Source: Alphaproteobacteria bacterium (GTDB taxonomy: Bacteria; Pseudomonadota; Alphaproteobacteria; Bin95). Taken from it: a stretch of 64,000 bases of DNA. The position numbers were made by a program, and so were the translations under genes. The first letter of the stretch is position 1. Each line of letters begins with the position of its first letter. The DNA is taken from positions 315,136 through 379,135 of the forward strand of contig OZ219788.1 in the NCBI GenBank assembly GCA_964291285.2. Reading direction: 5' to 3'. Positions 11,155-31,434 of this stretch are shown in pieces. The notes beneath the pieces were generated by a model. The model had not been told where the DNA came from, did no database searches, and saw only the letters and a list, made by a program, of their open reading frames with translations.

Positions 11155-11273
11155 CGCACCTGTCGGTTCTAACCTGTTGATACAGCGTCTGTTTTTCCTC
11201 GTGCAACAGCGGGTCAGGGGTGCAACTGCAACCGCAATGTGCCCCGCCTGCAAATGGATGCAGGAGGAAATCC

Positions 11274-12395
11274 ATGCCCATCGTACGCCTCAACGAGAGC
11301 CGGATCGAGGCCCTTGAATCCCGAAAGGCGCCATATGATGTCCGCGACGCAGAGCTGAAGGGCTTCGGCGTCCGCATCCTGCCTTCGGGCAGCAAACGCT
11401 ATTTCATTCACAGCCAGCATCAGGGCCGGCGCCTCTGGAAGACCGTGGGCGACGCCGGCAGCATCGGCTTCGACGAAGCCCGCCGGCAGGCAACGGAACT
11501 GCTTGCCGCCATCCGGCGCGACGAACCCGCCGCGCTTCCCGAAGACAGGCTCTTCGAGGCCGTGGCGGAGGAAGTCTTCTCCCGCTACGGGCGGCACTGG
11601 AAGCCCGGAACCATGAAGGTCAACCGGGGCTATCTGCGCAGCACGATCCTTCCCCGGTTCGCCGGGATGAACATCGCCGACATCACGAAAGCCGACGTGC
11701 AGCGCTGGTTCGCGTCCCTTCATGCCACGCCGGTGGCGGCCGACCGGTCGGCGCCGATCCTGTCCGTCATCATGCGCCAGGCCGAACTCTACGGCTACCG
11801 CCCCGAGGGCAGCAATCCCTGCACCGGCATCCGCCGCTACCGGCGCAAGGGACGGGAGCGGTTTCTTTCGGCGACCGAGCTTCGCCGCCTCGCGCGCGTG
11901 CTCGGAGATCATGAAGACCGGCATTCGCGCTGCGTCGCATTCATCCGCCTGCTGCTGCTGACCGGCTGCCGCAAGAGCGAGATACTGACCCTGCAATGGT
12001 CCGACTGCCGCGAGGGGCGCCTGTTCCTGCGCGACGGCAAGACCGGGCCCCGGACCGTGTGGCTGTCCTCGCCCGCGCGCGCCGTCCTGGACGGGCTTGC
12101 CCGGCAGGGCAAATGGGTCTTTCCCTCGCCGCAGAGGCAGGGGCCGGTATCCGCAACCGTCTTCGAGACCTTCTGGTGGCGGGTCCGGGAGGAGGCGGGG
12201 ATTGCCGATGTGCGCCTGCATGACCTTCGGCATACATATGCCAGCATCGCCATCATGGGGGGCGAGACCGTCACGGCGACGGCGCGGCTGCTCGGGCACA
12301 ACGATGCGCAGACAACACTGAAATACGCTCATTTGTCCGACCGTTCGGTCCGGGAGGCCGCCGACGCCCTCGGCTCCATCCTCGGGGAGAGCTGA
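11274..12395 (+). CDS. tyrosine recombinase / phage-type integrase with a DUF4102-like N-terminal arm-binding domain (373 aa)
   Basis: AGGAGG lies 6 nt upstream. MPIVRLNESRIEAL...YDVRDAELKGFGVRILPSGSKRYF.... Catalytic region ...LLLLTGCRKSEIL...HDLRHTYAS...LLGHNDAQTTLKYAH. Confidence 0.9.
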   Translation: MPIVRLNESRIEALESRKAPYDVRDAELKGFGVRILPSGSKRYFIHSQHQGRRLWKTVGDAGSIGFDEARRQATELLAAIRRDEPAALPEDRLFEAVAEEVFSRYGRHWKPGTMKVNRGYLRSTILPRFAGMNIADITKADVQRWFASLHATPVAADRSAPILSVIMRQAELYGYRPEGSNPCTGIRRYRRKGRERFLSATELRRLARVLGDHEDRHSRCVAFIRLLLLTGCRKSEILTLQWSDCREGRLFLRDGKTGPRTVWLSSPARAVLDGLARQGKWVFPSPQRQGPVSATVFETFWWRVREEAGIADVRLHDLRHTYASIAIMGGETVTATARLLGHNDAQTTLKYAHLSDRSVREAADALGSILGES

Positions 12396-12398
12396 TCC

Positions 12399-13544
12399 AT
12401 GCCGAGGCGGAAAAGGCTCACCGACGCCGGCATCGCAAGGCTTCGGGCCGGGGCGCGCGAATATACGGTCTGGGATACCGGGGTCGCCGGGCTCGGGGTC
12501 AGGGTTCGCCCCTCCGGCAGCCGGACGTTCATCTACCATCGCAAGACGGCCGACGGGTTGCGGAAGATGTCCTTCGGTCCGGCAGCGCTGCGCAAGGTCG
12601 CGGATGTGCGCCGCGCCTGCATGGAGGCCGCGACCGGGGCCGCCGACGCGGACGCAGCCTGTCGCGAAAGGGCGCCGCTGTTCGGGAATTTCGTGGCCGG
12701 TCAGTGGGAGGCGGATTGTTTCGAGCGCTGCAAGCCGTCCACGCAGAGGAACTTTGCCGGCATTCTGAGACGGCAGCTGCTTCCGGCCTTCGGCTCCCGG
12801 CGCCTCGACCGCATCACCCGCAGCATGGTGCTCCGCTGGTTCGAGGCTTGCAGCCGGACCGCGCCGGGGGCGGCCAACGCCGCCCTCGCCCTGCTGCGGC
12901 AGATCCTCAACCACGCCATCGCCTGCGGGTACATCGAAACCAACCCGGTGCGCGGCATCCGCCGCAATCCCGGCCGGAAGATGACGCGCTTCCTGTCCCG
13001 AGAGGAAATCACACGGCTTCACCGTGTCCTCGATCGGTATGCGCAAGGGACGGTCTCGCAGGCTCAGCAGGCCGACATCATCCGCCTGCTGCTGCTCACC
13101 GGCTGCCGCAAGGGTGAGATCGTGTATTTGCGCCGGGAGGAAGTGAAGGACGCCCGGCTCGAACTTGCAGACGCCAAGACGGGACCGAGAACGGTCCTGC
13201 TGAACGCGCCGGCACGGGAGATCGTCGCGCGCCGGATGCGGCAGGGAAACGGCCCCTGGGTCTTCCCCTCCGTCAGGGACCCGTCCCGGCCCCGATGCCG
13301 GGAGCTTCCCCTCTGGTATCGGGTTCGGCGCGAGGCCCGCATAGAGGACGTGCGCCTGCACGACCTTCGCCATACCGTCGCCAGCCAGGCGGCGATGAAC
13401 GGCGTGCCGCTGCCGGTCGTCGCTCGCCTGCTCGGACACGGCAATGTGCGCATGACGATGCGCTATGCCCATGTCGGAGACCGCGAGATCGAGGCGGCGG
13501 CGGAACGGGTCGGGCGGGCGATTGCAAACTTGATGGCGAAGTGA
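12399..13544 (+). CDS. second tyrosine recombinase / integrase, a paralog of the preceding gene (381 aa)
   Basis: It starts 3 nt after the int1 stop. ...EYTVWDTGVAGLGVRVRPSGSRTFIY...LLLLTGCRKGEIV...HDLRHTVAS...LLGHGNVRMTMRYAH. Confidence 0.9.
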   Translation: MPRRKRLTDAGIARLRAGAREYTVWDTGVAGLGVRVRPSGSRTFIYHRKTADGLRKMSFGPAALRKVADVRRACMEAATGAADADAACRERAPLFGNFVAGQWEADCFERCKPSTQRNFAGILRRQLLPAFGSRRLDRITRSMVLRWFEACSRTAPGAANAALALLRQILNHAIACGYIETNPVRGIRRNPGRKMTRFLSREEITRLHRVLDRYAQGTVSQAQQADIIRLLLLTGCRKGEIVYLRREEVKDARLELADAKTGPRTVLLNAPAREIVARRMRQGNGPWVFPSVRDPSRPRCRELPLWYRVRREARIEDVRLHDLRHTVASQAAMNGVPLPVVARLLGHGNVRMTMRYAHVGDREIEAAAERVGRAIANLMAK

Positions 13545-13624: not shown

Positions 13625-16762
<3,138 letters not shown>

Positions 16763-17314
16763 CGGGAAGGGACAGTCAACTGGTTCATGACGCGACGGAT
16801 CATCAGGTCTTTGTTGGCCGGTGCGCTCTCGGCAATCAACGGGGTGAGCCGGTCAGCACTCGGGGATCAAGCCGGCGCGCGACGCACTCCTGCGCCAGAT
16901 AGGGCAGGAAGAGGAGCGCAGATGCGTTTGTAGTCGTCGGTGACGGACGGCCCTTACCAATGAAGTAGAGCAGATGCACCACCTCCTCCTCACAGCTGCG
17001 GCAGAGCGGTTCGCCGGACATGGTCCGCTTGATGTTGCGACGATAGCGTCCAGGGCATCGCTGCGCTGGTTGCCGAAGAGCGGCGATGCCTCGCCTCTCG
17101 CTACGAGAACGCGTCTCGGGTCCTTGATGGCATGGGTTGCGCGGTCGGCGTCGAGTGCACCGACAGCCGGTTTCACGCCGGCCGGCCTTTCCATGCGGTT
17201 TTCGTCGTATTCCAGGAAAAGACGCCACATCTCGGTATTGGCCGAGCTGATGTCGGAAACAGCCGAGCCGGTATCGCCGGCCGGTTCAACCATATTCCGG
17301 ATTATCTTCGTCAT
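16763..17314 (-). pseudogene. decayed or frameshifted ORF(s) of unknown function between orf380 and hsdR
   Basis: Good GC3 coding signal runs from ATG 17314 (MTKIIRNMVEPAGDTG...EMWRLFLEYDENRMERPAG...DALDAIV). It then switches frame near 17020 (RNIKRTMSGEPLCRSCEEEVVHLLYFIGKGRP...). No single intact frame spans the 523-bp gap. Confidence 0.3.
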
Positions 17315-18428
17315 CGCGCAGGACGCTCTCCAGTTGGGGGTTCAGCAGCTTCCATCGCTGACGTACCCGCTCGAGATCACCCTTGAGGATGACCGGCACC
17401 CGGTCCTTATGGGCCTGAACCACGCGCTCGTAATCGGCCTGTTCCAGAACCGCCGCGACCGACTGCCATTGCCCGTCGATTTCGGTGCGGAACCTGATCG
17501 TCCCGTCCACATCTTCCTCTTTGCGTTCCAGGACACGAACGAAGCCATACAGAAGCACATCGGGCCTTGGCGCACGCTCTCGCAGGGAGCGCGCGGCCTC
17601 GCGCAGCAATACGGCATCCTTCGATCCGAACTGGGAAACCGACGGCGGCGTCTTCACCGGCCGCGTCCGTGCCCACGAGACGCTGATATCCAGCTTCGGG
17701 AACGGTTCGACGATTCTGGCAAGCGCCTCACAGAGATTGGCGCTCACCCCGCTGGATACTGCCTCTCCGAAGGCACCGCCATCGTCGGAACCCGCCCGCT
17801 CTGCCGCCCGACGTACCGCGGCCAGCGCCTCGACAAGCCGTTTCGTCATCCGGCGAAAGATCGGCGCGTTAAGGTCATCCGAAGCCTCATCCTCGAACAA
17901 CATTAGCATGGGCGGCGGCATGGCCGGTGTCAGCAATGTCACCACAAAACTGCCCTGGTCCGTCTGCCCAAGCCGCATCTGCCGCAAAAGGTCCGCCGCG
18001 TCCCTGTTTGCACGAGCACGGTACACCGGCCGCGGGTCATGAAGCGAGCACGCCGCCGCCAGCACCAGGTCGCTGGCGCCATCGATCAGGGTCACGCCGT
18101 CGTTCAGTCCCAGGCTGCCGTCGTCGCTCTCCGCCGCCCGGATGCGAATCGCATCGCGGTCCGCTGTCGTGAGCGCACGGTAAACGGTCAACGTGTCCTG
18201 GTCGGCTACCTGCGCGAAGGTCTCGATCAACGCCGCCACGGCACTTGCATAGTCCCCGAGGCGCGTCGTCAGCGGCACGACGATTTCCGGCAACGTGTCG
18301 CCGACATAGATGTCCGAATGCTCGCGATACGAGTCGCAGCGGCTCCAACCCGCGATGCGGGCGTAGGCGGACAGCGCCGCCGGTGAAATCGCCAGCAGCG
18401 CGTCGCGGTCTTGAATGCTGACTTGCAT
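17286..18428 (-). CDS. hypothetical protein (380 aa), no domain recognised; partner of the DUF4365 protein
   Basis: The ATG shares one base with the upstream stop (TGATG at 18428). Protein-like composition with high GC3. I could find no catalytic motif. Confidence 0.7.
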   Translation of the reverse strand: MQVSIQDRDALLAISPAALSAYARIAGWSRCDSYREHSDIYVGDTLPEIVVPLTTRLGDYASAVAALIETFAQVADQDTLTVYRALTTADRDAIRIRAAESDDGSLGLNDGVTLIDGASDLVLAAACSLHDPRPVYRARANRDAADLLRQMRLGQTDQGSFVVTLLTPAMPPPMLMLFEDEASDDLNAPIFRRMTKRLVEALAAVRRAAERAGSDDGGAFGEAVSSGVSANLCEALARIVEPFPKLDISVSWARTRPVKTPPSVSQFGSKDAVLLREAARSLRERAPRPDVLLYGFVRVLERKEEDVDGTIRFRTEIDGQWQSVAAVLEQADYERVVQAHKDRVPVILKGDLERVRQRWKLLNPQLESVLRDDEDNPEYG

Positions 18429-18928
18429 CAGAGTTCTCCCGTCCTGGATTGCTCCATCAGCCTTTGCAGGGCCTCAACATCGAGTATGTTCCGCTCGGGG
18501 ATATGAACGGTAACGGTCTTCTGACCGGCGACTTCATCATGGCCCCGTTGCAGGCTCAGCCAGTAGGCGCGACGCCGCAGGATGAGAGCCTCCTCGGTCA
18601 CGGACAACCAGCGCGCTTCGTCTTCGGGAAGCTCCAGCACCACGAGCAGCCGAGGCGTCTGCGTCCCGGCACGTAGATCGTCGTAGTTCTTCAAGGACAG
18701 TCGAAACGGCAGGACGCCGTTTCTTGGCCCGCTGAGATCGGCAGTGGCCTTGAGTTGCAAGTCGAGGGCCGGGCGATATGTACCTCCCGCCTGAACCCGC
18801 AGGTCGACGCTGTCGCGGTCCGGCGCCGGCACAGAAGTCAGAAACCCTGCACGCGCCGCCAGCGCCTTGACATAGACCAGGGACAGCCCCTCCTTCCTGT
18901 CAGGAGAGGTGAGCAGGCCGCCAGTCAT
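18428..18928 (-). CDS. DUF4365-like protein (166 aa, predicted restriction-endonuclease-like fold)
   Basis: EGLSLVYVKALAARAGF...DRDSVDLRVQ...ALDLQLKAT matches my recollection of the DUF4365 pattern (D...(D/E/Q)xK core). There is a 4-nt overlap with the hsdS stop. Confidence 0.65.
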   Translation of the reverse strand: MTGGLLTSPDRKEGLSLVYVKALAARAGFLTSVPAPDRDSVDLRVQAGGTYRPALDLQLKATADLSGPRNGVLPFRLSLKNYDDLRAGTQTPRLLVVLELPEDEARWLSVTEEALILRRRAYWLSLQRGHDEVAGQKTVTVHIPERNILDVEALQRLMEQSRTGEL

Positions 18929-20544
18929 GCAATCTCTCCGACAATCTGTTCAGCATCCCGAAGTCGGACTTCGCCGGACATCAGTTTGGGAAGCAGCCCG
19001 TGTAGAATGCCGACGAGAGAATGACTTTGCCGGGAAGCCGCACTTGCTCGAGCGATAGGCGGACGAACCAGATTTCCGAACGCGACGGCGACTTGCTCTG
19101 TCGGGCACGCAAGTGGGAATTTTTGCAAGGCTTGGGCCTGCACCCGCTGGCGACCGCTTGTACCGGTCATGTTCTGAATGGCAAATTCGCGGAAACGAAA
19201 ACTTCGGGCGAGACAATATGCGAATTCATACGGAAGCGGAGACTTGGGGCGCAAGACAATGTACTCTGTGGATCCCCAACCTACCTCGCCTTCCTGCAAG
19301 AAATCGACATAGGCCGTCTTTCCGTTCTCTAGGCATGGCGTGATACGAGCCATAAGTGTATCGCCGTTCATGAACTTTGTCCCCGAGCCAAAGGGACGAG
19401 CAGAGATGGTATCAGGTATATGTCCCTTGGCTGGCATGTTCGCCATATCGAGGTACGGAGCGGTTTGCCCCTTGGGCAAACGCCGCAGGGGATTGACTGA
19501 GATCAGATCGTCGAGCGGGCTCACTTCCCACCCCTCCGGTATCTCGCCGATTTCGGAATTGGCGAAGCGGTCGGGAAACAGTTTCCATATTTCGGGAGGC
19601 AGATAGGGCGCACGCCCTTCCATCTTCGCCCGGACCGGCCCGAAATCGACGAACCAGTCCTTGAAGATCGCCCGCGCCATCGCCTCCAGCGTCCCGTTCA
19701 TGCGCCGGTTCAACGCGATCTTGTCGTCCAGCGCGCCGAGGATGCCCGCAATCGCCCGCTGCTCGGGAAGGGGTGGTAAATCGATGTTCAGATTCTTGAT
19801 ATCCGAGGGCCTTATTGACGGATAAGCCGAAGTACTGTGTTCGGCAATGGTATGAAGCTGGTTGATAATTCGTTCCTGAACAAGAAACCAATAGATGAAA
19901 CCAGTGTCAGCAATGTCTTCACGCGCACGAAACACCGCAAAGCCAGTAGATGCGAGAAAATTCTCTGGAACATCCCGTAGCAACCCGAAGTGCCTCTGAT
20001 TGGGCCGGACGGTTGAGAATACGATGTCGCCCGGTTCAATTTTGCGACGCGCACGGTCAGGCAGCTTGTCTTTGTTCAGCTTCAGGCATTGAATCCTCTC
20101 TATTCGGTTATCTGTGATGCTGCCTGTATCAAGGTAATTGACAAATGGCCAATCTTCCTTCGGGGAATATGTTGCTTCATTCATTACGGTGCATTCGCCA
20201 AGTCGTATCCTGTGCCAATGATTGGCAGGAACTAGCGGTTTGGCCAGTACCACATGGTCTCGCTCAATTTGCTTCCGGAAGGAGCCCGGCACGTCATCCC
20301 AGACGAACAGGTCCACCCGGAATGGGAGACTGCTTTCCTCCAACGCTTCCCGGAGGTCGGAAACGGCGCGCTTCTGTTCGGGCGTCGCGAACACCACCAT
20401 ATCGATGTCGGATTGGGGGCGAGAGGTCCAACTGACCCGGGAACCGTAAGCCCAAGCCTTGGTGTCCGGGAGATGGCGTTCGAGCAACGCCAGAATATCT
20501 TTGCGTTGCCCGGCGGTGATGTCGATGGAGAAGTTTATTCCCAT
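18925..20544 (-). CDS. hsdS: fusion protein (539 aa): N-terminal minimal nucleotidyltransferase (MNT) domain joined to a type I restriction specificity subunit HsdS
   Basis: aa 1-~105 carry the MNT signature AYGSRVSWTSRPQSDIDMVV. The rest is a two-TRD HsdS with conserved LPPLPEQRAIAGILGALDDKIALNRRMNGTLEAMARAIFKDWF and a C-terminal LLPKLMSGEVRL. It is one continuous frame with no internal stop. Confidence 0.8.
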   Translation of the reverse strand: MGINFSIDITAGQRKDILALLERHLPDTKAWAYGSRVSWTSRPQSDIDMVVFATPEQKRAVSDLREALEESSLPFRVDLFVWDDVPGSFRKQIERDHVVLAKPLVPANHWHRIRLGECTVMNEATYSPKEDWPFVNYLDTGSITDNRIERIQCLKLNKDKLPDRARRKIEPGDIVFSTVRPNQRHFGLLRDVPENFLASTGFAVFRAREDIADTGFIYWFLVQERIINQLHTIAEHSTSAYPSIRPSDIKNLNIDLPPLPEQRAIAGILGALDDKIALNRRMNGTLEAMARAIFKDWFVDFGPVRAKMEGRAPYLPPEIWKLFPDRFANSEIGEIPEGWEVSPLDDLISVNPLRRLPKGQTAPYLDMANMPAKGHIPDTISARPFGSGTKFMNGDTLMARITPCLENGKTAYVDFLQEGEVGWGSTEYIVLRPKSPLPYEFAYCLARSFRFREFAIQNMTGTSGRQRVQAQALQKFPLACPTEQVAVAFGNLVRPPIARASAASRQSHSLVGILHGLLPKLMSGEVRLRDAEQIVGEIA

Positions 20545-20951
20545 ATCTGTTCGGTCATCGTTTGGTAGAGGCCTATGGCGTCGTCGATAAACGTGGGCAT
20601 CAATGCCAGGCAGGCTTTCGCTTTCTCGCCGTCGTAATCGTGCGACGTATTGATACGCGCTTCCGCATATTCAAGCCAATCTTCCAACGGAGAAGCGAAC
20701 AGGCTGTTTTCATGTGCAAGCCTGAAGAGAGGCTTGGGACTGTTGGGTACTTCGGCAATGCCGAGTTTCTCGTTAAGGTATCTTTTCAGTACCTTCCACA
20801 AGTAGTCGTAGCAGGTCTCGAAGCGCTGAATGACCGACTCGGCGACCCCTTCCCGGGTCATTTCGGATAGTCCTTCGTCGGGCGACTGATAGTTGTCATG
20901 TTGCTCCTCCAGGCGTTTCAAGGACAACTCGAATTTTCCATAGTCGATCAT
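20535..20951 (-). CDS. HEPN-domain protein of the HI0074 / nucleotidyltransferase-substrate-binding type (138 aa)
   Basis: MIDYGKFELSLKRLEE...VIQRFETCYDYLWKVLKRYL... with an Rx4H motif (RINTSH). It overlaps the MNT::hsdS start by 10 nt. An alternative upstream start is at 21023. Confidence 0.75.
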   Translation of the reverse strand: MIDYGKFELSLKRLEEQHDNYQSPDEGLSEMTREGVAESVIQRFETCYDYLWKVLKRYLNEKLGIAEVPNSPKPLFRLAHENSLFASPLEDWLEYAEARINTSHDYDGEKAKACLALMPTFIDDAIGLYQTMTEQIWE

Positions 20952-20973
20952 GTACAGCCCTTCCGCACCGCTT

Positions 20974-21221
20974 TCACCAGGAAGAGCGGCGCAAGACCAG
21001 CGCCTCAACGGTTCCGGCCGCATCCGGCTCCCCGTCAGGCAACCCTTCGGGGTCGCCGTGCTTTCCCTGCCAGGACTCCGTTCCCGTATCGAGGTCGATC
21101 TTCTTCACAATCATGCGCTCGGGAGACAGATCATCGTAACCCCCTTCGTAGCCGTCCACCACGACATGCAGCACGGGCGGATAGCCGCCAGGCAGCTCGA
21201 TCAATTCCGCAACCGTCATGC

Positions 21222-21225
<4 letters not shown>
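20974..21225 (-). CDS. small hypothetical protein (83 aa)
   Basis: The start overlaps the hsdM stop (ATGA at 21222-21225), which suggests translational coupling. Acidic, protein-like sequence with no recognisable domain. Confidence 0.4.
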
Positions 21226-22826
<1,601 letters not shown>

Positions 22827-23044: not shown

Positions 23045-26000
23045 TCATTGTGTGGCGATTCCGTACAATTTTTGAAACCGGAGGTCGCCAGAAATTCCGC
23101 AATTCCCGGCGCACAGAGCGTCAAGCAATTTCTTGAGACCGGGCTTGTTATAGTCCGGCAGAACATCGATTACCTTATTCAGCACCTTGAGCAATGGCTC
23201 CGGATGCTGTTTCGCGCAGCCATTCCTGTTGAGAACGAAGAAGCTATGCCCGACGCCGCCGCTGCCTTCCACGGGCCGCAAATATGTCAGCCACCATTCC
23301 GCCGCCTGAGGAAATGCATCGCCGCACTCCGCAAGCATCTTCAGTATCGCTTCCGAGATCTTCGCAGTATTGCGGCCCTGCTCTCGCGGCCAGTAGCTGC
23401 AAAGCCAGCGGTGCAATTTCTCGTCCCAGATCCGCTGCCGTTCGTCAGGTGTCCCGGTGAGGCGCCGCCTCAGGCTCCCAAGCACAGTCACCAGCCCTTG
23501 TTCGGGCATGGGGGCGACAACGTCGCGAATCTCTTTCTCAGTCAGATCTCCCGGCGCATCAAGGCAGACCGCCATGAACAGGTCTCTCAGTCGGCGCATT
23601 CTCCGGTCTTCAAGCCTGTCGTCGTGCAGGATTTCGAGAAACGGCGCCCTGATGGCTTTCAGGAGGTCCGGACCCAGACCTGGCGACCAGCTGTATGCAG
23701 ACCATAGGTCGACAGCTTCCTGTGACTTCAGGCAGGCGAGGCGCGCGATCAGGTGCTGCCGGGTCCACTCAGCGTCGACCGCAAACAGCGGGCGCAATCT
23801 GGTCGCCAGAAGCACGCGGCCTGGATGCCCGAGCGGGTCTTCGGCCATGGCGTCGAAATACGGCCGGACCGGTGGAGGGAATCCCGCTCCGGCTGGCAGT
23901 TCGTATTTCGACAGCCGGGTCAATGCCGCTTCCGCCAGCTTTCCGGCCGGATGGTTCAAGGCGTTCGTCAGGGTTTCATTCTGGTCGGCCATCTCCGATT
24001 CGCCCTCGCCCTTTCCGACCCAGGATTTCATCCAAAGGACACCGAATTCAGCTTCCCGATCGGTTTCCCATGCGTCCGCAAGCTGTTTCACGAAGCCCGC
24101 GACGGCGGACGCTACCTCGCCGAACAGCTCGCCGGGAGCCTCGGCAAGGATTCTTGCCGCACAGGCGTGCAGTTCCGCCGGCCGCTTTGGTTCCGGCAGC
24201 TCCCAGAGGAAATCCCGCCAGTACCCTGCAGGCCATTTGCCCTGTTTTCCGAGCTGTCGCAGCGCGGAAAAAACCTCTGCCGGTTTCCGGGCAGCCAGCC
24301 CTCGCAGTCCGTCCTGAACGATTTCCCCGGTATCGAGCGCCACCACGATGTCTTCGACCGATCCCTTGAGGAGATGCTTGGGCGCATAATCTTCGATGCC
24401 GATTCGTTCATACTTTACCTCGCCAAAAAATTCATCGATCTCTCCCTCGATTTCCTCCATTTTCTGGGTTATTGTTTCAGCCATCGCTCTTGATTTCTTG
24501 TCCAGCTTTATCCCGGACATGCCCAGCATGTGCAGGAACAATGCCTGTTCTTTGCGCAACCCTTCGTCACTGCCGAAGGATTCCCGGATTTTATTCGATT
24601 TCGGTCCAGCGTGAATTGCGTCAATGATGTCGCTGCGGAGATCTCGGGGTAACCGCTTGCCCGCCAATCTCAGAAAACGCATCGTTTCGCGCCGCATATC
24701 GAAGTCCCAGAGACCGAGGTTTCGACCTCCCAGAAGCAATTTCTGGGCAAGCCGAATATCGGCTCTCGGGTTTTCGGTCAGCGCGTGCAGCGCCAGCCTC
24801 CCGAACAGCGGCTCTTCGGAGTCCGCCCAGCGAAGGAGAAGATTGTACGCGCGTCGGCTCTCGTCGGGAACCAGCGCAAGATAACTGTCCCGCGCCAGAT
24901 CGATGAGGCGGGTCCAGTTGTCGAAATCGTTGTTTTGCTCGTGAGGCGCGATCGACGGCCGATACAGGTACGACCGCTGGTAGACATTGCCATCGGCCTT
25001 ACCCAGGGAAAGGGCGTGTTCGAGATGATCGGTCAGCGTCTCGGCGTGTCTCGAAAGCACTTCCCGGTCATCGAGAATAGCCTTGAATAGCGCCCAAACC
25101 CTGTCGCATGCCGACATCAATTCGAGATGTCCGCATGTATCGATGGGCTGCGGCGCTTGCGGGGTATTCTCGTAATTCAGCCGTACTTGCCGGACCATGG
25201 AAAGACCCGGTCGGACGACGAGACGCGGCCGGATACTCTCCATGACCTTGTCCTCGATGAGCCTGCGTTCGTCGGGGGACATCGCGGCCCGATGACGGTC
25301 GGAAAGCCAGAGCCCGTTCCAGGGATCATCGGGCCTGCTGCCCAGAAGAACGGTCCAGAGCAGTCGCAGCCTGTCGGGAATGTCCGGAAGCGCGGAAGCC
25401 CGCTCAGTCAGACGGCTCTCGACCTGCTGGCGAAGAAGAGGGTGGAGATGAGCGCCGTTCCGAAGCGCCCAGGCCAGCAGTTGCGGCACATGCAGATGGT
25501 TGGCCAGCCAAACCGAGAGATGGTGCCTTGTCCTATCCAGATTGTAGGGATTCACCGATTCGAGACCGGTATCTACGAGATGCCGGTCCGTCCCGTTAGC
25601 GGCAGAGCGCAGCAGACCCTTTTCCGCGAACATGTCGAGCCACTTCTCGAACTTTGCATGGTCCTCCTCGTTCGACATGGGAGGGGCTTCGGCAAGCGCC
25701 TGTGCGGCCGATGCGTCCTGTAGCGCCCAGACGACCCGTTCCACAACCGGCCCGGCCGGCATCTTGTTAATCTCGTCGATGGCGATCCGGGAACGGGCTC
25801 GAAGGGGATCGCTTCGGATCCGCGCCCATTCAATCAGTGTGTCTGCGAGAAGGCGGTGTCCGTCCCGCTCGTCATAGAGGATCGGTTCGACATTCTTCGC
25901 GACCCAGGCGTCACGCGCCCTGGATATCCCGGCTTCGGAACCATCCATGGCGGCGAATGCCCAAGCCATTCCGAAGCCCGCGCCCTTTGACCGCTCGGCG

Positions 26001-26701
26001 GCAAGGGCGTCGACCATGTACCCCATGACAGGATCGTCGAGGCTGTAGCCGACGAAGACGACCGAGAATTCGCGAAACAGTTCGGTGACGAACCTCGCCG
26101 CCCAGCGCTCGGTCAGATATGCGCGCCCGAAATCTGCCGCGGTCAGCACCAGGTTCGAGCCATCTTCCTTCGGTGCGATGCGGCCGTGCAGATGCACCAG
26201 GCTCGACCAGGCATGAGGCTTGGGTATCGGAAGCCGGGGCGCGGCATCGACCGTCAGGGATTCTTCCGCCGCTTCGGCAAAGCGGTTGTCGAAATTGGTG
26301 GTAACAAGTCGGACGCCGCTGTCGAAATTGGTGGTAACAGGTCGGACGCCGCGTTCAGTCCGCGACAGCTTGAGCAATGCCTTGTGGAGTTTCAGGTCAC
26401 CGCTTCGCGGTCGAGAAAGCCGGTCGATGACCGCACCCCGCAAGTGGTTCGCGCCCAGGCGGCGTTCCAGAAGCCCGAGCGCCCTGTCCCAGGCCCCGCT
26501 ACATAGCGCTTGCCGTTCGGCGGGATCGGGTTCGATGTGGTTGGCATCATATACATGTTTCACGAGGGCTTTGAAGCTCGGCAGGTCAGACCCTTCTGCC
26601 ATCGAGACCCCGGCGCCGCAGAAGAAAACGACATTGCCGTCGTCCAGCCCGTTCAGGAGGGGCGCCGGAATGTCCGGGCCGTCTTCAATCAGTTCAGGCA
26701 T
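23045..26701 (-). CDS. giant SIR2-like (SIR2_2-type) domain protein, 1218 aa, with a ~950-aa helical C-terminal region of unknown function
   Basis: N-terminal VVFFCGAGVSMAEG...VTTNFD...LVHLHGR...VFVGYSLDDP is the prokaryotic defence-type sirtuin pattern. It is co-directional with, and 218 bp upstream of, hsdM. Confidence 0.8.
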   Translation of the reverse strand: MPELIEDGPDIPAPLLNGLDDGNVVFFCGAGVSMAEGSDLPSFKALVKHVYDANHIEPDPAERQALCSGAWDRALGLLERRLGANHLRGAVIDRLSRPRSGDLKLHKALLKLSRTERGVRPVTTNFDSGVRLVTTNFDNRFAEAAEESLTVDAAPRLPIPKPHAWSSLVHLHGRIAPKEDGSNLVLTAADFGRAYLTERWAARFVTELFREFSVVFVGYSLDDPVMGYMVDALAAERSKGAGFGMAWAFAAMDGSEAGISRARDAWVAKNVEPILYDERDGHRLLADTLIEWARIRSDPLRARSRIAIDEINKMPAGPVVERVVWALQDASAAQALAEAPPMSNEEDHAKFEKWLDMFAEKGLLRSAANGTDRHLVDTGLESVNPYNLDRTRHHLSVWLANHLHVPQLLAWALRNGAHLHPLLRQQVESRLTERASALPDIPDRLRLLWTVLLGSRPDDPWNGLWLSDRHRAAMSPDERRLIEDKVMESIRPRLVVRPGLSMVRQVRLNYENTPQAPQPIDTCGHLELMSACDRVWALFKAILDDREVLSRHAETLTDHLEHALSLGKADGNVYQRSYLYRPSIAPHEQNNDFDNWTRLIDLARDSYLALVPDESRRAYNLLLRWADSEEPLFGRLALHALTENPRADIRLAQKLLLGGRNLGLWDFDMRRETMRFLRLAGKRLPRDLRSDIIDAIHAGPKSNKIRESFGSDEGLRKEQALFLHMLGMSGIKLDKKSRAMAETITQKMEEIEGEIDEFFGEVKYERIGIEDYAPKHLLKGSVEDIVVALDTGEIVQDGLRGLAARKPAEVFSALRQLGKQGKWPAGYWRDFLWELPEPKRPAELHACAARILAEAPGELFGEVASAVAGFVKQLADAWETDREAEFGVLWMKSWVGKGEGESEMADQNETLTNALNHPAGKLAEAALTRLSKYELPAGAGFPPPVRPYFDAMAEDPLGHPGRVLLATRLRPLFAVDAEWTRQHLIARLACLKSQEAVDLWSAYSWSPGLGPDLLKAIRAPFLEILHDDRLEDRRMRRLRDLFMAVCLDAPGDLTEKEIRDVVAPMPEQGLVTVLGSLRRRLTGTPDERQRIWDEKLHRWLCSYWPREQGRNTAKISEAILKMLAECGDAFPQAAEWWLTYLRPVEGSGGVGHSFFVLNRNGCAKQHPEPLLKVLNKVIDVLPDYNKPGLKKLLDALCAGNCGISGDLRFQKLYGIATQ
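26288..26353. repeat. 33-bp in-frame tandem duplication (2 copies, 2 mismatches) inside the SIR2 core
   Basis: GTCGAAATTGGTGGTAACAAGTCGGACGCCGCT is followed by GTCGAAATTGGTGGTAACAGGTCGGACGCCGCG. On the coding strand these give GVRPVTTNFDS and GVRLVTTNFDN. Confidence 0.9.
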
Positions 26702-27125: not shown

Positions 27126-30100
27126 ATGGTGGCGACGGTCTTCAACCTGACCTCGGCTTCCTCGACGGTGCACTATTTCCGGCGCGAGGGGCACGGGCTC
27201 GGGCCGAACCTGCCGGCGAACGACGACGAGGCGGGCGACTACTACGCGCGCAAGGATGACGAGCACCGCAAGGCGAGCCGGTGGCGGGGCAGCGGGGCGG
27301 CGGCGCTGGGGCTGACGGGCCATGTCGAGCCGGTGGAGTTCCGGCGTGTGCTGCAGGGATACGTTCCCGGCACGGACATCCGGCTGGGGCGGCTGCGCGA
27401 CGGCGAACACGAGCACCGCCCGGGTGTGGACATCACGTTTTCGGCGCCGAAGTCGGTGTCGCTCGAGGCGCTGCTCGGCGGTGCGGGTTCGGCCAGGGCG
27501 ATGCGGGCGCACGATGCGGCGGTGCGGGCGACGCTGGACTACATCGAGACACGGCTCTTGCGAACCCGGCGCTGGAGCCGCGAGGAGCGGCGCTCGGTGC
27601 AGGTGAATGCGCCCATGCTGGTGGCGGCGACCTTCCGGCATATCACGAGCCGCAACAACGACCCGCAGCTTCACACCCATTGCGTGGTCGCGAACATGAC
27701 GCGCGACGGCGGGCAGTGGCGGAGTGCGGAGACCGGTCTGCTGCGCCGGTCGGAGAAGCTGGTCGGGGCCTTCTACCGCAACGAGCTGGCGCACCGTCTG
27801 CGCCGTGAGGGTTTCGCGCTGCGTCCGTCGATGATCGGGCGGGTTCCGGGGTTCGAGATCTCGGGCTGGCCGCGTGCGGTGCTGGAGGCGTTCTCGAGCC
27901 GGCGGCAACAGATACTGGCCTACATCCGGGAGAAGGGCTGGCGCTACGATGCGCACACCGCGCAGGCGGCGACGCTGGCGACGCGGGCGCGCAAGAACGA
28001 GCCGCGCCGGGCGGAGCTTGAGGCGCTGTGGCGGGCGTTTGCCGAGGAAAATGGCCTCGCCAGGCGGACGCTGCGGAAGATCGGGGTGCGGCATGCGGCG
28101 CCGCCGACGGCGCTGGAGATCGCCTGGCGGGCTCTTGAGCAGCTGGAGGAGCGGGCGAGCGTCTTCCCGGCGCGGGACGCGCTGGCGCTGGCGCTGGCGC
28201 TGGCGCATTCGCCCGGCCTCTACCGGCTTGAGGAGATCGAGGGGGCCTTTGCGGAGCTTCGACGGGACAAGCATTTGCTGCCGGCGATCCGGCGCGGGGC
28301 GGGCGAGGCCTGGACGACGGCGCGGGCGGTCAACGCCGAACGCGAGGTGCGCGAGCGCACGATCGCCAATATCGGTGCTGTCAGGGCGCTCTCCGAAGCT
28401 CCCGTCCCCGGAGAGGCGCTGGAGGGCCTGACCGGGGGCCAGCGCGAGGCGGTGCGGCTGATCCTGGAGAGCCGGGACCGGGCGGTCGGGGTGCAGGGCC
28501 ATGCGGGCACCGGCAAGACGGTGATGCTGCGCCGGGCCGTGTCGTGCATGGGAGAAAGGCGGGTGCTGGGACTGGCGCCGTCGGCCTCGGCGGCGCGGAC
28601 GCTGTCGCGCGAAACGGGCCTCGCCTGCCGGACGCTGCAATGGTTCCTGACGCGCTGCCAGGAGGTGTCCGACGGGGTGGCGGACGCAAGGACGCTCGCC
28701 GCGCTGAGAGAGCGCCATGGCGGCGCGGTGGTGGTGGTGGTGGACGAGATGTCGCTGGCGGGCACGGCGCAGGCGCGCGCGCTGCTGCGGATTGCCGAGC
28801 GCCTCGACATTGCCCGGCTTGTGCTTGTGGGCGACAGCCGGCAGCTGCGGGGCGTGCAGGCGGGCCAGCCCTTCCGGCAGATGCAGCAGGCGGGCTTGGG
28901 CGTCGCGGAGATGGACGAGGTTCGCCGGCAGCAGGACCCGGACCTGCTGGCCGCCGTCCAGGACATGATCGAGGGCGAGCCGGGCGCGGCGCTGGAGCGT
29001 CTCGGAGGCAACCTGCGGGAACTGCCGGCGGAGGAGATCGCGGGCATGGCGGCCGCGCTCTGGCTGCGGCTTTCGCCCGGGGCGCGGGCGGGTACGGCGT
29101 TGCTGGTTCCGACGCGCGCGCTCAGGGCCGAGGTCGAGGAGGCGGTGCGCGAAGGCCTCGAAGCCGAGGGCGCCCTGCACGGGTCCTCCATCGGGATCGA
29201 GACGCTCGTGCCCCTCAACCTCACGCGCGCGGAGACGGGGTCGTGCGGCTGATACCGAGCTTCTCCCACGGCCCCTCAACCTCACGCGCGCGGAGACGGG
29301 CGACGTGCGCAACTGGCGCGAGGGCGACATCGCGCTCTTCAACCGCGAGCGGAAGAACTACCGCATCCGCAAGGACGACGCCTGCACGGTGATGGAGGTG
29401 GAGGAGGACCGGGTGATCCTCGCCCATCCCGATGGCCGGCCGCGCCACCTGAAGCCCGGCGGCGACCTGCGCTACCGGCTGGACCTGTTCGAGGCGAAGA
29501 CGCTGCGGATCAGGGAGGGCGAGCAACTGCGCTGGACGCGCAACGACAGGGAGCGCGGCCTCGTCAACGGCGACCGTGTGGAGGTGGCCGCCATGGGAAC
29601 CGGAGCGCTCCGCATGCGCCTCTCCGACGGGCGGGAGATGCGATTCGCGCGCGACGACCCGCAGCTTCGTCATCTTGCATACGCCTATGCGTCCACCGTG
29701 CATGCGGCGCAGGGGCAGACGCACGACCGTGTGGTCGCGGTGCTGGACACAGGCGCGGGGCCGCTGGTGAACCAGCAGACGCTCTACGTGCAGCTCAGCC
29801 GCGCGCGGGAAGAGGCGCTGGTGCTGACCGACAACCGCGAGCAGCTTGTGGAGACGCTGGAGGCGAACACGGGCGAGCGGCTGACGGCGCTGGAAGCCAT
29901 CGGCGAGACGGAGACGATGAAGGCGCCGGCGAAGCGGACGGTCTCCGGGGAGGCGGCGTCTGCGTTCCTTGACGGCCTGCGCGCGGAGCGGGAGCGCCGC
30001 GCCGAAGCGGAGGCGGCCTTGCGCCGGCTGGCGGAGGCCGAAGCAGCGCTTGCCGCAGCCCGCGCCCATGCGCAGGAAGCCGGATACACCTTCGCCGCCC

Positions 30101-31434
30101 TGCCGGCGGTCGATCCGGACGACGGACAGACCCTTCAGGACCGTCTCGCGGCGGCCAAAATTGTGCAGGAAGCGGCGCATGATGTCTCGGCTGCCGCCCA
30201 TGCGGTGCTGGAGGCGGCGAAGGCGGCGGACCGCGTCCCGCCGCTCGACGATGCCGCGATGGAGGCGGCGAAGACCGGCGAAACCGAGGCAGCGGCGCGC
30301 CTTGTGGCATACCGGTCGCTGGAGACGGCCTTGACGGCGGCGAACAGGGCGTCCGGACGGCTGGCGCCCGCAGGCGCGCTCCGCGACAAGGATATCGACG
30401 GGGCTTCGATGCAGCGCCATGGCGCCGCCGCCCGGGAGGCGGCCGCCGCCTTCGACGCCCTCGCGCAAAAGGCGCGGGCAGCGGGCGAGGCGGCGCTGGC
30501 CCGGCGCGCGCGGGAGAGGGCTTCGGACCTCGGGCTGGCGGCGCTGCACTGGAGCTACAGGCTGGCGGGCCACCGGTTCGCGGTGGCGCGGCTGGCCGAG
30601 CGGGACATGGCGCCGCCGCACACGGTCGGGGACGTGCGGCGCTGGCAGGACCTGCGCCAGCGCCAGGCGGACGCGCGGACCGGGGCGGCAGCCGCGGCCG
30701 AGGCGGTCGCGCCGGAGAGCGCGGACGCGGCGGCCCGGTGGCGTGAACAGGCGGCGGACTACCGCAAGCAGGCCGGCGCGATACGCGGCTCGCTGGCGGA
30801 ACTGGAGGGGCTGAAGACGCTGGTGCGGACCGCGGAAGCCGCGTCGGACGACGCGGCGGCATGGAGCGCGGCGGCGGGCGCGGCGGAGACGATCCGGAAA
30901 GGCTCCGGCCGGGGTCTGGAGGACGAGGCCGCGCGCGTGCGTGACGAGGAGGCGCGCCGCCGACAGGAAGGGCGCGAGGCGGCGCGGGCACGTTTCGAGA
31001 CCCTGAGCTCGGAATGGGACGCGTTCGAGAGGAAGGTCAGGGCCGGGGGGCGGGTCGGCTTTGCGGACAAGCGCAGCCGGCAATATGTCGACCGCGCGCG
31101 GCGGCTGGAGGCGGACCCCGATCTCGATGCGGAAGCGAAGGAGACGCTCGCGGCGTTCCTGCACGAGCACGATGTCGTGCGCCCGAAGGTCGTCCGGCGC
31201 TGCCGGGAGCTGTTCGCGCAGTGGAACGCGGTCCGCGCAACGGCAAGGGCCCGCGGCGTCGGCCGGTTCATCCCTCCGGAGAGCGCGGAGGTCGTTGCGG
31301 GGATGCGCAAGCTCGCCGCCGGGAGCCCGGAGCACCTGACGCGCAGACAGAAGGAGACATTCGAGACGATCACCGAGGAATACGCCCTCCATGTCGAGCG
31401 GCAGCGGACATGGGTGATGACCATGAGGCCGTGA
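27126..31434 (+). pseudogene. MobF-family conjugative relaxase / helicase (TrwC/TraA-like), disrupted by a 61-bp insertion
   Basis: Relaxase motifs (DYYARKDDEH; HITSRNNDPQLHTHCVVANM) and a RecD-like helicase Walker A (VQGHAGTGKTVM). The frame breaks at 29240-29271. Removing 61 nt gives 4248 nt = 1416 codons. Confidence 0.85.
29210..29300. repeat. 30-bp perfect direct repeat (29210-29239 and 29271-29300) flanking a 31-bp unrelated spacer inside the relaxase gene
   Basis: GCCCCTCAACCTCACGCGCGCGGAGACGGG occurs twice, 61 bp apart. Both copies encode PLNLTRAETG in the respective frames. Confidence 0.9.

Follow-up and report, generated by a model that had tools for sequence, protein, structure and literature searches.

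A predicted type VII-like toxin-antitoxin pair with the antitoxin domain fused to the Type I specificity subunit HsdS

Introduction

The HEPN/MNT modules are regarded as being among the most abundant toxin-antitoxin families, and their physiological role is still debated. Here we describe a module of this class in which the nucleotidyltransferase, MNT, forms the N-terminal domain of HsdS, the specificity subunit of a Type I restriction-modification (R-M) enzyme, and in which the gene of a small HEPN protein lies immediately upstream. The module is encoded in a stretch of 64,000 nucleotides (nt) of an alphaproteobacterial genome (GenBank assembly GCA_964291285.2, contig OZ219788.1, positions 315,136 to 379,135 of the forward strand), which was analyzed as a whole and is referred to below as the window; all coordinates are those of the window, and all genes of the operon are on its minus strand.

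The mechanism of such pairs is best described for the type VII HepT/MntA systems, in which MntA AMPylates the tyrosine of the RX4HXY motif in HepT and thereby blocks its ribonuclease (RNase) activity (PMC7641770; PMC11586414; PMC13000451); the arginine and histidine of this motif belong to the active site, and its tyrosine is the residue that is AMPylated (PMC11586414). The pairs of Shewanella oneidensis (SO_3166/SO_3165), Aphanizomenon flos-aquae and Legionella pneumophila share with the window locus an RX4HXY HEPN adjoining a GSX10DXD MNT, as well as co-oriented, overlapping genes, and the Q..E metal site reported for the Legionella HEPN is also invariant in the HEPN family of the window (Q42, E45). 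They differ from it in that the window antitoxin is the N-terminal domain of HsdS rather than a free protein, in that the order is HEPN and then MNT, and in that the window HEPN resembles the HepT proteins investigated only weakly (E = 0.04-0.45). The window pair belongs to the HI0074/HI0073 branch, and the closest solved sequences are HI0073/HI0074 of Haemophilus influenzae (PDB 1no5, 1jog) and TTHA0048/TTHA0636 (1wty, 1wwp), with the same PF08780 family; they occur either as two-gene modules of their own or as single proteins, and have no link to HsdS.

A HEPN RNase in an hsd operon has also been described before. In passages of a 2013 survey of HEPN proteins (PMC3710099), PrrC is portrayed as a HEPN RNase of the EcoprrI hsd operon that is latent in the R-M complex and unleashed by a phage anti-restriction factor; the same passages state that HEPN genes cluster with R-M operons, propose a backup-defense logic for them, and describe fusions of R-M-associated HEPN domains to nucleases, helicases and ATPases, while MNT-HsdS is not mentioned in them. 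The window locus shares with EcoprrI a HEPN RNase gene inside a Type I hsd operon, here between hsdM and hsdS, a position that is kept in 61-62 of the 69 fused loci presented below. PrrC, however, is a large ABC-ATPase-HEPN protein that is silenced by non-covalent association and has no MNT, whereas the predicted RNase of the window is a minimal HEPN of 138 amino acids (aa), linked to R-M through a covalently fused nucleotidyltransferase antitoxin. Since the window HEPN is a single-domain protein without the N-terminal ABC-ATPase, it is not a member of the PrrC family, and the likeness is functional only. To our knowledge, the control of accessory toxins inside R-M operons is unclear outside the single example of PrrC.

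Lastly, the joining of MNT to a partner by a linker is shared with FhepTA, a fused MNT-HEPN protein, in which MNT is stabilized by the fusion and the linker is important for AMPylation (PMC13000451). In FhepTA, MNT is fused to its own toxin, whereas in the window it is fused to the subunit of another defense system and the toxin is separate. Links to R-M are mentioned neither in this paper nor in that on the Legionella HEPN-MNT pair (PMC11586414). The known parts of the window locus are therefore Type I R-M, the HEPN/MNT type VII toxin-antitoxin system and the presence of HEPN genes within R-M operons; what is new is that the specificity subunit itself contains the antitoxin enzyme as a domain, and that it does so throughout a large conserved family in which the toxin gene comes first and the gene overlap is fixed.

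Domain structure of the fusion protein

The fusion is encoded by one continuous frame of 539 codons (18925..20544), comprising an MNT domain, a linker and a complete HsdS with two target recognition domains (TRDs); the open reading frame (ORF) has no internal stop, as the initial annotation had maintained. The MNT domain, a predicted antitoxin enzyme, occupies aa 1-101 (20242..20544) and is recognized by Pfam Polbeta (PF18765) at aa 21-100, with 35.9 bits against a cut-off of 26.9, and also by NTP_transf_2 (PF01909); in the PDB, the N-terminus of the fusion matches HI0073 (1no5) with E = 4e-12. Its GSx10DxD catalytic motif, GSRVSWTSRPQSDID (20401..20445), is complemented by D78 as the third acidic residue, and alignments of the family show no variation at G34, S35, R36, D46, D48 and P74 and little at D78 (conserved at 90% or more).

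The HsdS moiety (aa 109-539 plus stop; 18925..20220) is recovered by Pfam Methylase_S (E = 1.2e-18) and over practically its whole length by PADLOC Specificity_I, in which aa 107-537 cover profile positions 2-444 of 446 (E = 3e-112), while its PDB matches, 5ybb and 3okg, fall in two stretches. It consists of TRD1 (19771..20220), a central conserved helix region (19570..19770), TRD2 (19099..19569) and a C-terminal helix (18928..19098). The two TRDs parted by two conserved helical regions that characterize HsdS were found by PADLOC, PDB matching and the AlphaFold2 (AF2) model alike, and both hsdM and hsdR are present in the same locus on the same strand.

The AF2 model of the fusion has a mean pLDDT (the per-residue confidence score) of 88.9 and is made of two confident units with a disordered segment between them. 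The MNT domain is confident over aa 10-101 (pLDDT about 85-93), and the HsdS, with its two TRDs, displays long helices at 259-299 and 483-523 with pLDDT above 90. The inter-domain linker (aa 102-108; 20221..20241) falls below pLDDT 50 at residues 104-108, and among homologs it is variable in sequence and ranges in length from about 8 to 30 aa. Together with the HEPN protein described below, these Pfam, PDB and PADLOC matches and motif translations bear out the domains initially named, namely an HI0074-type HEPN with Rx4H, an MNT with GSx10DxD, and a complete two-TRD HsdS.

Two other accounts of the long frame were rejected. The possibility that HsdS is translated on its own, starting inside the frame, was discarded on the ground that the linker contains no conserved methionine or start codon; a conserved N-terminal segment of HsdS (W..v.LGe) lies upstream of the sole methionine nearby. 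A sequencing or assembly artifact, which the initial annotation had named as a possible undoing of the fusion, was discarded because independent assemblies contain the same or nearly the same protein and the frame is kept in most homologs (see below); the identical fusion protein is present in public data (P0001, 100%), and relatives of 92-94% identity are found in other metagenome-assembled genomes (MAGs).

The HEPN protein and its junction with the fusion gene

The HEPN gene (20535..20951) encodes a protein of the HI0074 / NTase_sub_bind family (PF08780, E = 3.6e-21) and is predicted to specify an RNase toxin; its closest solved relatives are PDB 1wty, 1wwp and 1jog (E = 2e-7 to 7e-6). Its ORF extends up to a first ATG at 21023 (20535..21023), which the initial annotation had taken as the start. 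While the position of the gene directly upstream of the fusion was upheld, this start was not: the conserved product begins at 20951 (MIDYGKFE...) and is 138 aa long, most orthologs are of the same length and start with MIDY or MIEY, and a public collection contains the exact 138-aa product (P0123).

The HEPN is highly conserved across phyla, with a mean column identity of 80% among 22 orthologs from many phyla, in all of which R99, T102, H104, Y106 and the QRFE segment (Q42, E45) are invariant. In a larger set of 63 HEPN sequences the arginine and histidine never vary, and the conservation of D105 and Y106 is 90% or more. The motif RINTSHDY (20634..20657; R99, H104, Tyr106) thus contains both the Rx4H and the acceptor tyrosine of the type VII signature RX4HXY.

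The HEPN stop and the MNT::hsdS start overlap by exactly 10 nt (ATGGGAATAA; 20535..20544), the length that had initially been noted. The same 10-nt overlap recurs in 56 of 80 loci in genomes and in 39 loci in metagenomes, and the junction pattern, ATGGGAnTAG/TAA, is conserved among loci. The overlap is probably a point of translational coupling, from HEPN to MNT-HsdS.

Distribution and conservation of the fusion

A set of the 120 best homologs of the fusion was assembled, 48-94% identical to it and typically of 530-560 aa; about 104 of them have the MNT catalytic motif GSx10DxD at the N-terminus of a continuous MNT-HsdS frame. Genomes, one per species, were also scanned with two narrow peptide patterns derived from 12 closer sequences, which yielded 258 confirmed loci, and the best 80 of these were examined in detail. 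The 80 loci represent at least ten phyla, almost all of them in MAGs, and include Acidobacteriota, Alpha- and Gammaproteobacteria, Binatia, Latescibacterota, Nitrospirota, Opitutales, Rhodothermales, Spirochaetia and others. MNT is fused to HsdS in 69 of the 80; in 62 of these 69 a HEPN gene lies directly upstream on the same strand, and in 61 hsdM lies upstream.

When MNT alone was used as query against 1.84 billion cluster representatives (clusters at 50% identity), 123 clusters were obtained at E <= 1e-30. Among the best 150 cluster representatives, 92 are at least 450 aa long, i.e., full-length fusions, and 33 are mostly partial fusions, compared with about 7 short stand-alone MNTs (135 aa or shorter). 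In view of these 92 full-length fusions against about 7 stand-alone proteins, this MNT lineage is predominantly a domain of HsdS. Its partner domains are far more diverse than MNT itself: 59 full-length fusions that belong to one MNT cluster comprise at least 15 unrelated types of TRD1 and at least 8 types of TRD2, and among pairs of MNT domains at least 75% identical (n = 352), TRD1 was unalignable in 289. These alignments indicate repeated replacement of the DNA-recognition domains, with MNT remaining in place throughout. Since MNT is retained through such extensive TRD replacement, the fusion is kept by selection, and the arrangement as a whole is real, conserved and under selection.

The same fusion also exists in a distant MNT lineage, represented by Zymomonas (29% identity) and by FGSRATWTAKDYSDLD-type fusions among the homolog matches, which suggests either an old fusion or repeated ones. 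The Zymomonas case is plasmid pZMOB01 of Z. mobilis ATCC 10988 (NC_017180.1; WP_014466388.1 and WP_014466389.1), which has the same architecture in a cultured bacterium: a HEPN of the HI0074 family (RRNLTSHTY) is followed by a 527-aa MNT::HsdS (GSRARWTAKDYSDLD) and then hsdR. It differs from the window locus in its 29% identity in the MNT/TRD1 region and in its overlap of 4 nt instead of 10 nt. In RefSeq the pZMOB01 fusion is labeled only 'restriction endonuclease subunit S', which makes the antitoxin domain invisible in the annotation; more generally, RefSeq holds fusion proteins with both Pfam domains, i.e., the architecture is visible in databases and has gone unremarked. The deletion of hsdSp in strain ZM4 without a growth defect (Lal et al. 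2021, PMC8432527) was considered as evidence on the fusion and set aside: the hsdS of pZM32 encodes a plain 420-aa S subunit with no HEPN or MNT, and the work is for that reason uninformative here.

The initial annotation allowed that the fusion might prove both common and already characterized. It is indeed common, with hundreds of loci in many phyla; as for its characterization, no paper describing an MNT-HsdS fusion was found in full-text searches, subscription-only literature and REBASE being outside their scope.

Variants of the architecture were also observed (P0070, P0083, P0088, P0005; L017, L028, L057, L060, L080). Some proteins carry two tandem MNT domains ahead of HsdS, and in some loci a stand-alone HEPN-MNT pair lies directly upstream of a second HEPN + MNT::hsdS pair. 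Separately, larger HsdS relatives of about 715-840 aa (P0006, P0017, P0024, P0025, P0036, P0037, P0047) contain an additional PF04480 (DUF559) domain, most of them also PF18741 (REase-like), and in most an N-terminal MNT motif is present; these PF04480-bearing S subunits are a further uncharacterized fusion family.

Co-occurrence of HEPN and MNT

A search of metagenome contigs from the HEPN side retrieved 80 loci, and in 78 of them MNT lies directly downstream of HEPN, the other two having too little downstream sequence. About 43 of these MNTs are MNT-HsdS fusions and about 25 stand alone, of which 3 are then followed by a separate hsdS (the split forms L089, L091 and L114); 10 run off the contig. 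No HEPN lacking a downstream MNT was seen among these 80 metagenome loci. Loss in the opposite direction does occur, as 7 of the 69 fused genome loci have no intact HEPN. In at least 4 HEPN-less loci that were examined, three fused and one unfused, fragments of HEPN persist upstream of the MNT gene; L033 has a divergent HEPN together with a degenerate MNT motif. HEPN was thus not encountered without MNT, while MNT-HsdS is sometimes accompanied by mere remnants of HEPN, an asymmetry that is expected of a toxin and its antidote.

Two loci without HEPN contain other genes between hsdM and MNT::hsdS. These are a 579-aa protein and a small ORF in L061 (4840..6960 of that locus), and an AAA-ATPase-like protein of 395 aa with a 132-aa protein in L069 (5188..6964). 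The gap between hsdM and MNT::hsdS may be a hotspot for the insertion of accessory genes.

Origin and transfer

Acetobacter oryzoeni B6 carries on plasmid NZ_CP042810.1 an unfused operon, in the order hsdM, HEPN, MNT (99 aa), hsdS and hsdR, in which the MNT gene ends 20 nt before hsdS. Its gene order and the position of its HEPN-MNT pair within the Type I operon are the same as in the window, MNT alone being separate, and it is a plausible precursor layout. A stand-alone pair with HEPN followed by MNT is found on pZA1001 of Z. mobilis NCIMB 11163. The likely history is that a HEPN-first pair was inserted between hsdM and hsdS, and that loss of the MNT stop codon then fused MNT to hsdS. With regard to a phage origin, a HEPN profile scan of viral contigs gave only one weak match (39%), the module being essentially absent there.

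In the window, the guanine-plus-cytosine (GC) content of HEPN and the HsdS part is 0.51-0.54, against 0.68 in hsdM and hsdR. Among 53 related loci, 45 show a similar GC gap (about 9 points; 9-15 overall), the means being 0.54 and 0.63. This difference in composition is compatible with movement of HEPN + MNT::hsdS as a cassette between operons. A Binatia MAG (L002) contains DNA that is 93% identical to the window over hsdM-hsdS and hsdR, which indicates that whole operons are transferred too, and not just the cassette.

Proposed mechanism and alternative explanations

The reading that we favor, with middling confidence, is that of a type VII-like pair whose antitoxin is part of a Type I enzyme and which is in this way coupled to R-M. 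HEPN and MNT very probably form a working toxin-antitoxin system with the MNT domain as the neutralizer; all residues needed on both partners are conserved, and the 138-aa HEPN is therefore taken as an RNase toxin and MNT as an AMPylating antitoxin. In the manner of type VII antitoxins, the MNT domain would bind HEPN and AMPylate Tyr106 in its Rx4HxY loop; the initial annotation likewise viewed the two as a toxin-antitoxin pair neutralized by MNT, in keeping with the published mechanism (PMC7641770, PMC11586414). The 10-nt overlap would make the translation of MNT-HsdS follow that of HEPN. As HsdS is the core and scaffold of the M2S1 and R2M2S1 complexes, the restriction enzyme would physically include the antitoxin and, probably, the toxin docked on it. 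With an intact R-M complex and a supply of ATP, HEPN would remain modified and therefore silent. A phage that put the HsdS-containing complex out of action, dislodged it or exhausted the ATP would leave freshly synthesized HEPN unmodified, and this HEPN would shut down translation (abortive infection), providing a second line of defense like that of PrrC-EcoprrI. The two consequences suggested in the initial annotation, addiction of the R-M system and liberation of the RNase upon titration or degradation of HsdS, are likewise hypothetical. By analogy with the latter, the main role of the pair may be that of an R-M-coupled anti-phage backup, a proposal that we advance tentatively and with somewhat less assurance than the coupling itself. 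A bolder version, which we consider rather doubtful, is that the Type I complex would serve as the sensor of the toxin-antitoxin switch, with AMPylation of HEPN depending on the state of the complex, be it intact, bound to DNA or under attack from anti-restriction proteins of phages, e.g., DNA mimics, and with the unit being exchanged as a specificity-plus-toxin cassette.

Several observations weigh against the favored reading. Neither protein reaches the cut-off of the corresponding NCBIfam model, MNT scoring 34.8 bits with MntA_antitoxin (NF047752; cut-off 60) and HEPN 49.6 bits with HI0074 (TIGR01987; cut-off 55.8); at the level of families, both pass the Pfam models. The gene order, HEPN and then MNT, is opposite to that of most described MNT-HEPN pairs, and in the passages of the 2013 survey the order MNT and then HEPN is almost universal among such pairs (PMC3710099). 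The separate MNT gene upstream of the toxin that is typical of type VII is not present either, the genes here being adjacent but with HEPN first and MNT fused. The reversed order was not mentioned in the initial annotation; it is found also in stand-alone HEPN/MNT pairs of the same clade. Solved MntA antitoxins act as dimers within hetero-oligomers, and M2S1 has one HsdS and hence one MNT domain, a stoichiometry that may not fit such dimers. AMPylation is covalent, and 'release' of the toxin would consequently need either new, unmodified HEPN or a de-AMPylase, and no de-AMPylase is evident. The disordered linker and the unfused operons imply that the physical tether may not be essential, and an HsdS with the same TRDs (P0038, 66% identity) has no MNT; encoded by a solitary hsdS that adjoins a SIR2 gene, with no HEPN or MNT, P0038 shows only that the HsdS moiety exists independently.

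Some of the same features could be viewed as those of a selfish specificity cassette, in which HEPN + MNT::hsdS would be a mobile unit protecting its own place in the operon. Recombinants or mutants in which hsdS was lost or replaced while HEPN persisted would die, which would stabilize the cassette and with it the entire R-M operon or the element carrying it; phage defense would be secondary or absent. The lower GC that 45 of 53 loci show in HEPN and in the HsdS part does suggest that the two travel jointly and separately from hsdM and hsdR, although amino-acid composition may account for part of it, and the 93% identity of the entire operon with that of the Binatia MAG, hsdM and hsdR included, means that transfer is not limited to the cassette. 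The unusual conservation of HEPN across phyla (80% mean column identity), the decay of HEPN with retention of MNT-HsdS, which fits toxin-antitoxin dynamics, and the location of the operon on an integrative or mobilisable element all agree with addiction, and the toxin-first order with its 10-nt overlap would tie the synthesis of the antitoxin to a particular hsdS. An unfused pair at the same position would, however, already stabilize the operon, so that addiction alone does not explain the dominance of the fusion; furthermore, an MNT carried on a stable complex subunit should be long-lived, as fusion stabilizes MNT (PMC13000451), and this would weaken post-segregational killing. On balance we regard addiction as possible but unlikely to be the principal explanation.

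It is less probable still that the fusion is neutral, i.e., that a hitchhiking HEPN-MNT pair lost the MNT stop, leaving two independent halves and a tether devoid of functional meaning. Unfused and split arrangements with the same gene order, the short, disordered and variable linker, the existence of an HsdS gene with the same TRDs and no MNT, and the receipt of other inserts at the hsdM-hsdS site (the AAA ATPase pair in L069, another protein in L061) are what one would expect in that case. Against this, the fused form predominates in the MNT clade, has persisted in ten or more phyla despite extensive exchange of TRDs, and occurs in the distant lineage as well (Zymomonas, FGSRATWTAKDYSDLD-type), a pattern that points to maintenance by selection or to repeated origin. 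Finally, MNT and HI0074 could be the catalytic and the substrate-binding subunits of a two-subunit nucleotidyltransferase mounted on HsdS, modifying an R-M subunit, and so regulating restriction, or DNA or a phage component. The family name, the original structural proposal for HI0073/HI0074 (cited in PMC11586414), the fact that these two are the closest solved relatives, and the invariant catalytic residues of the nucleotidyltransferase speak for such an enzyme; nonetheless, the invariant Rx4H with its acceptor tyrosine and the QxxE match the RNase and AMPylation residues of characterized HEPN toxins, and HEPN never occurs without MNT, the asymmetry of a toxin and its antidote, which leaves this explanation highly improbable.

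The MNT::HsdS family offers a direct handle on the role of HEPN/MNT and on the control of toxins embedded in R-M operons. The fusion predicts a physical complex of R-M and toxin, and Z. mobilis ATCC 10988 with pZMOB01 is a cultured host of the architecture. Deleting or swapping such an hsdS in order to improve transformability might unleash a toxin. Should the Type I complex act as a sensor, the family would amount to a hard-wired 'guard' circuit of wide occurrence, in which covalent protein modification connects immunity at the DNA level with that at the RNA level.

Operon layout and genomic neighborhood

The first gene of the operon is hsdM (21222..22826), which encodes the 534-aa Type I methyltransferase subunit (Pfam N6_Mtase, E = 3.5e-102; HsdM_N, E = 1.1e-27), and hsdR (13625..16762) encodes the 1045-aa restriction/translocase subunit (Pfam HSDR_N, SWI2_SNF2, T1RH-like_C). 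The gap between hsdS and hsdR is occupied by genes for a DUF4365 protein (18428..18928) and a 380-aa protein (17286..18428), joined by overlaps of 4 nt and 1 nt; they correspond to the PADLOC candidate defense pair PDC-M02A (E = 8e-53) and PDC-M02B (E = 2.6e-115). This pair is also found in several related loci (e.g., L006, L008, L019, L020, L048) and is missing from the otherwise 93% identical operon of L002. A scan for promoters and terminators within the operon gave no signal above background.

Directly upstream of hsdM lies the gene of a 1218-aa SIR2-domain protein (23045..26701, minus strand; PADLOC Dsr1, E = 4e-169). Two tandem tyrosine integrases (11220..13544, plus strand) adjoin hsdR, and beyond Dsr1 (27126..31434, plus strand) two ORFs follow one another, the first encoding a TrwC-type relaxase that includes an AAA_30 domain and the second containing a UvrD_C_2 helicase domain; they may be the halves of one split gene. 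Based on the proximity of Dsr1, PDC-M02A/B, the integrases and the TrwC relaxase, the operon is situated in a defense island on an integrative or mobilisable element.

Between hsdM and HEPN lies one more gene, orf81 (20974..21219; to 21225 from the first ATG), encoding a conserved protein of 81 aa (MTVxELIxLL...ALVLRR.S). It has 53 homologous clusters, none with a Pfam domain, and its alignment is well conserved; its fold has no match in the PDB. No function was obtained for it from Pfam, NCBIfam, PADLOC, PHROGs, the AF2 model (pLDDT 75), or PDB and viral fold searches; a weak similarity to small uncharacterized phage proteins was noted. In 32-34 fused loci, and in about half of the related operons, orf81 is located just upstream of HEPN, and it may be a third component of the HEPN/MNT::hsdS module.

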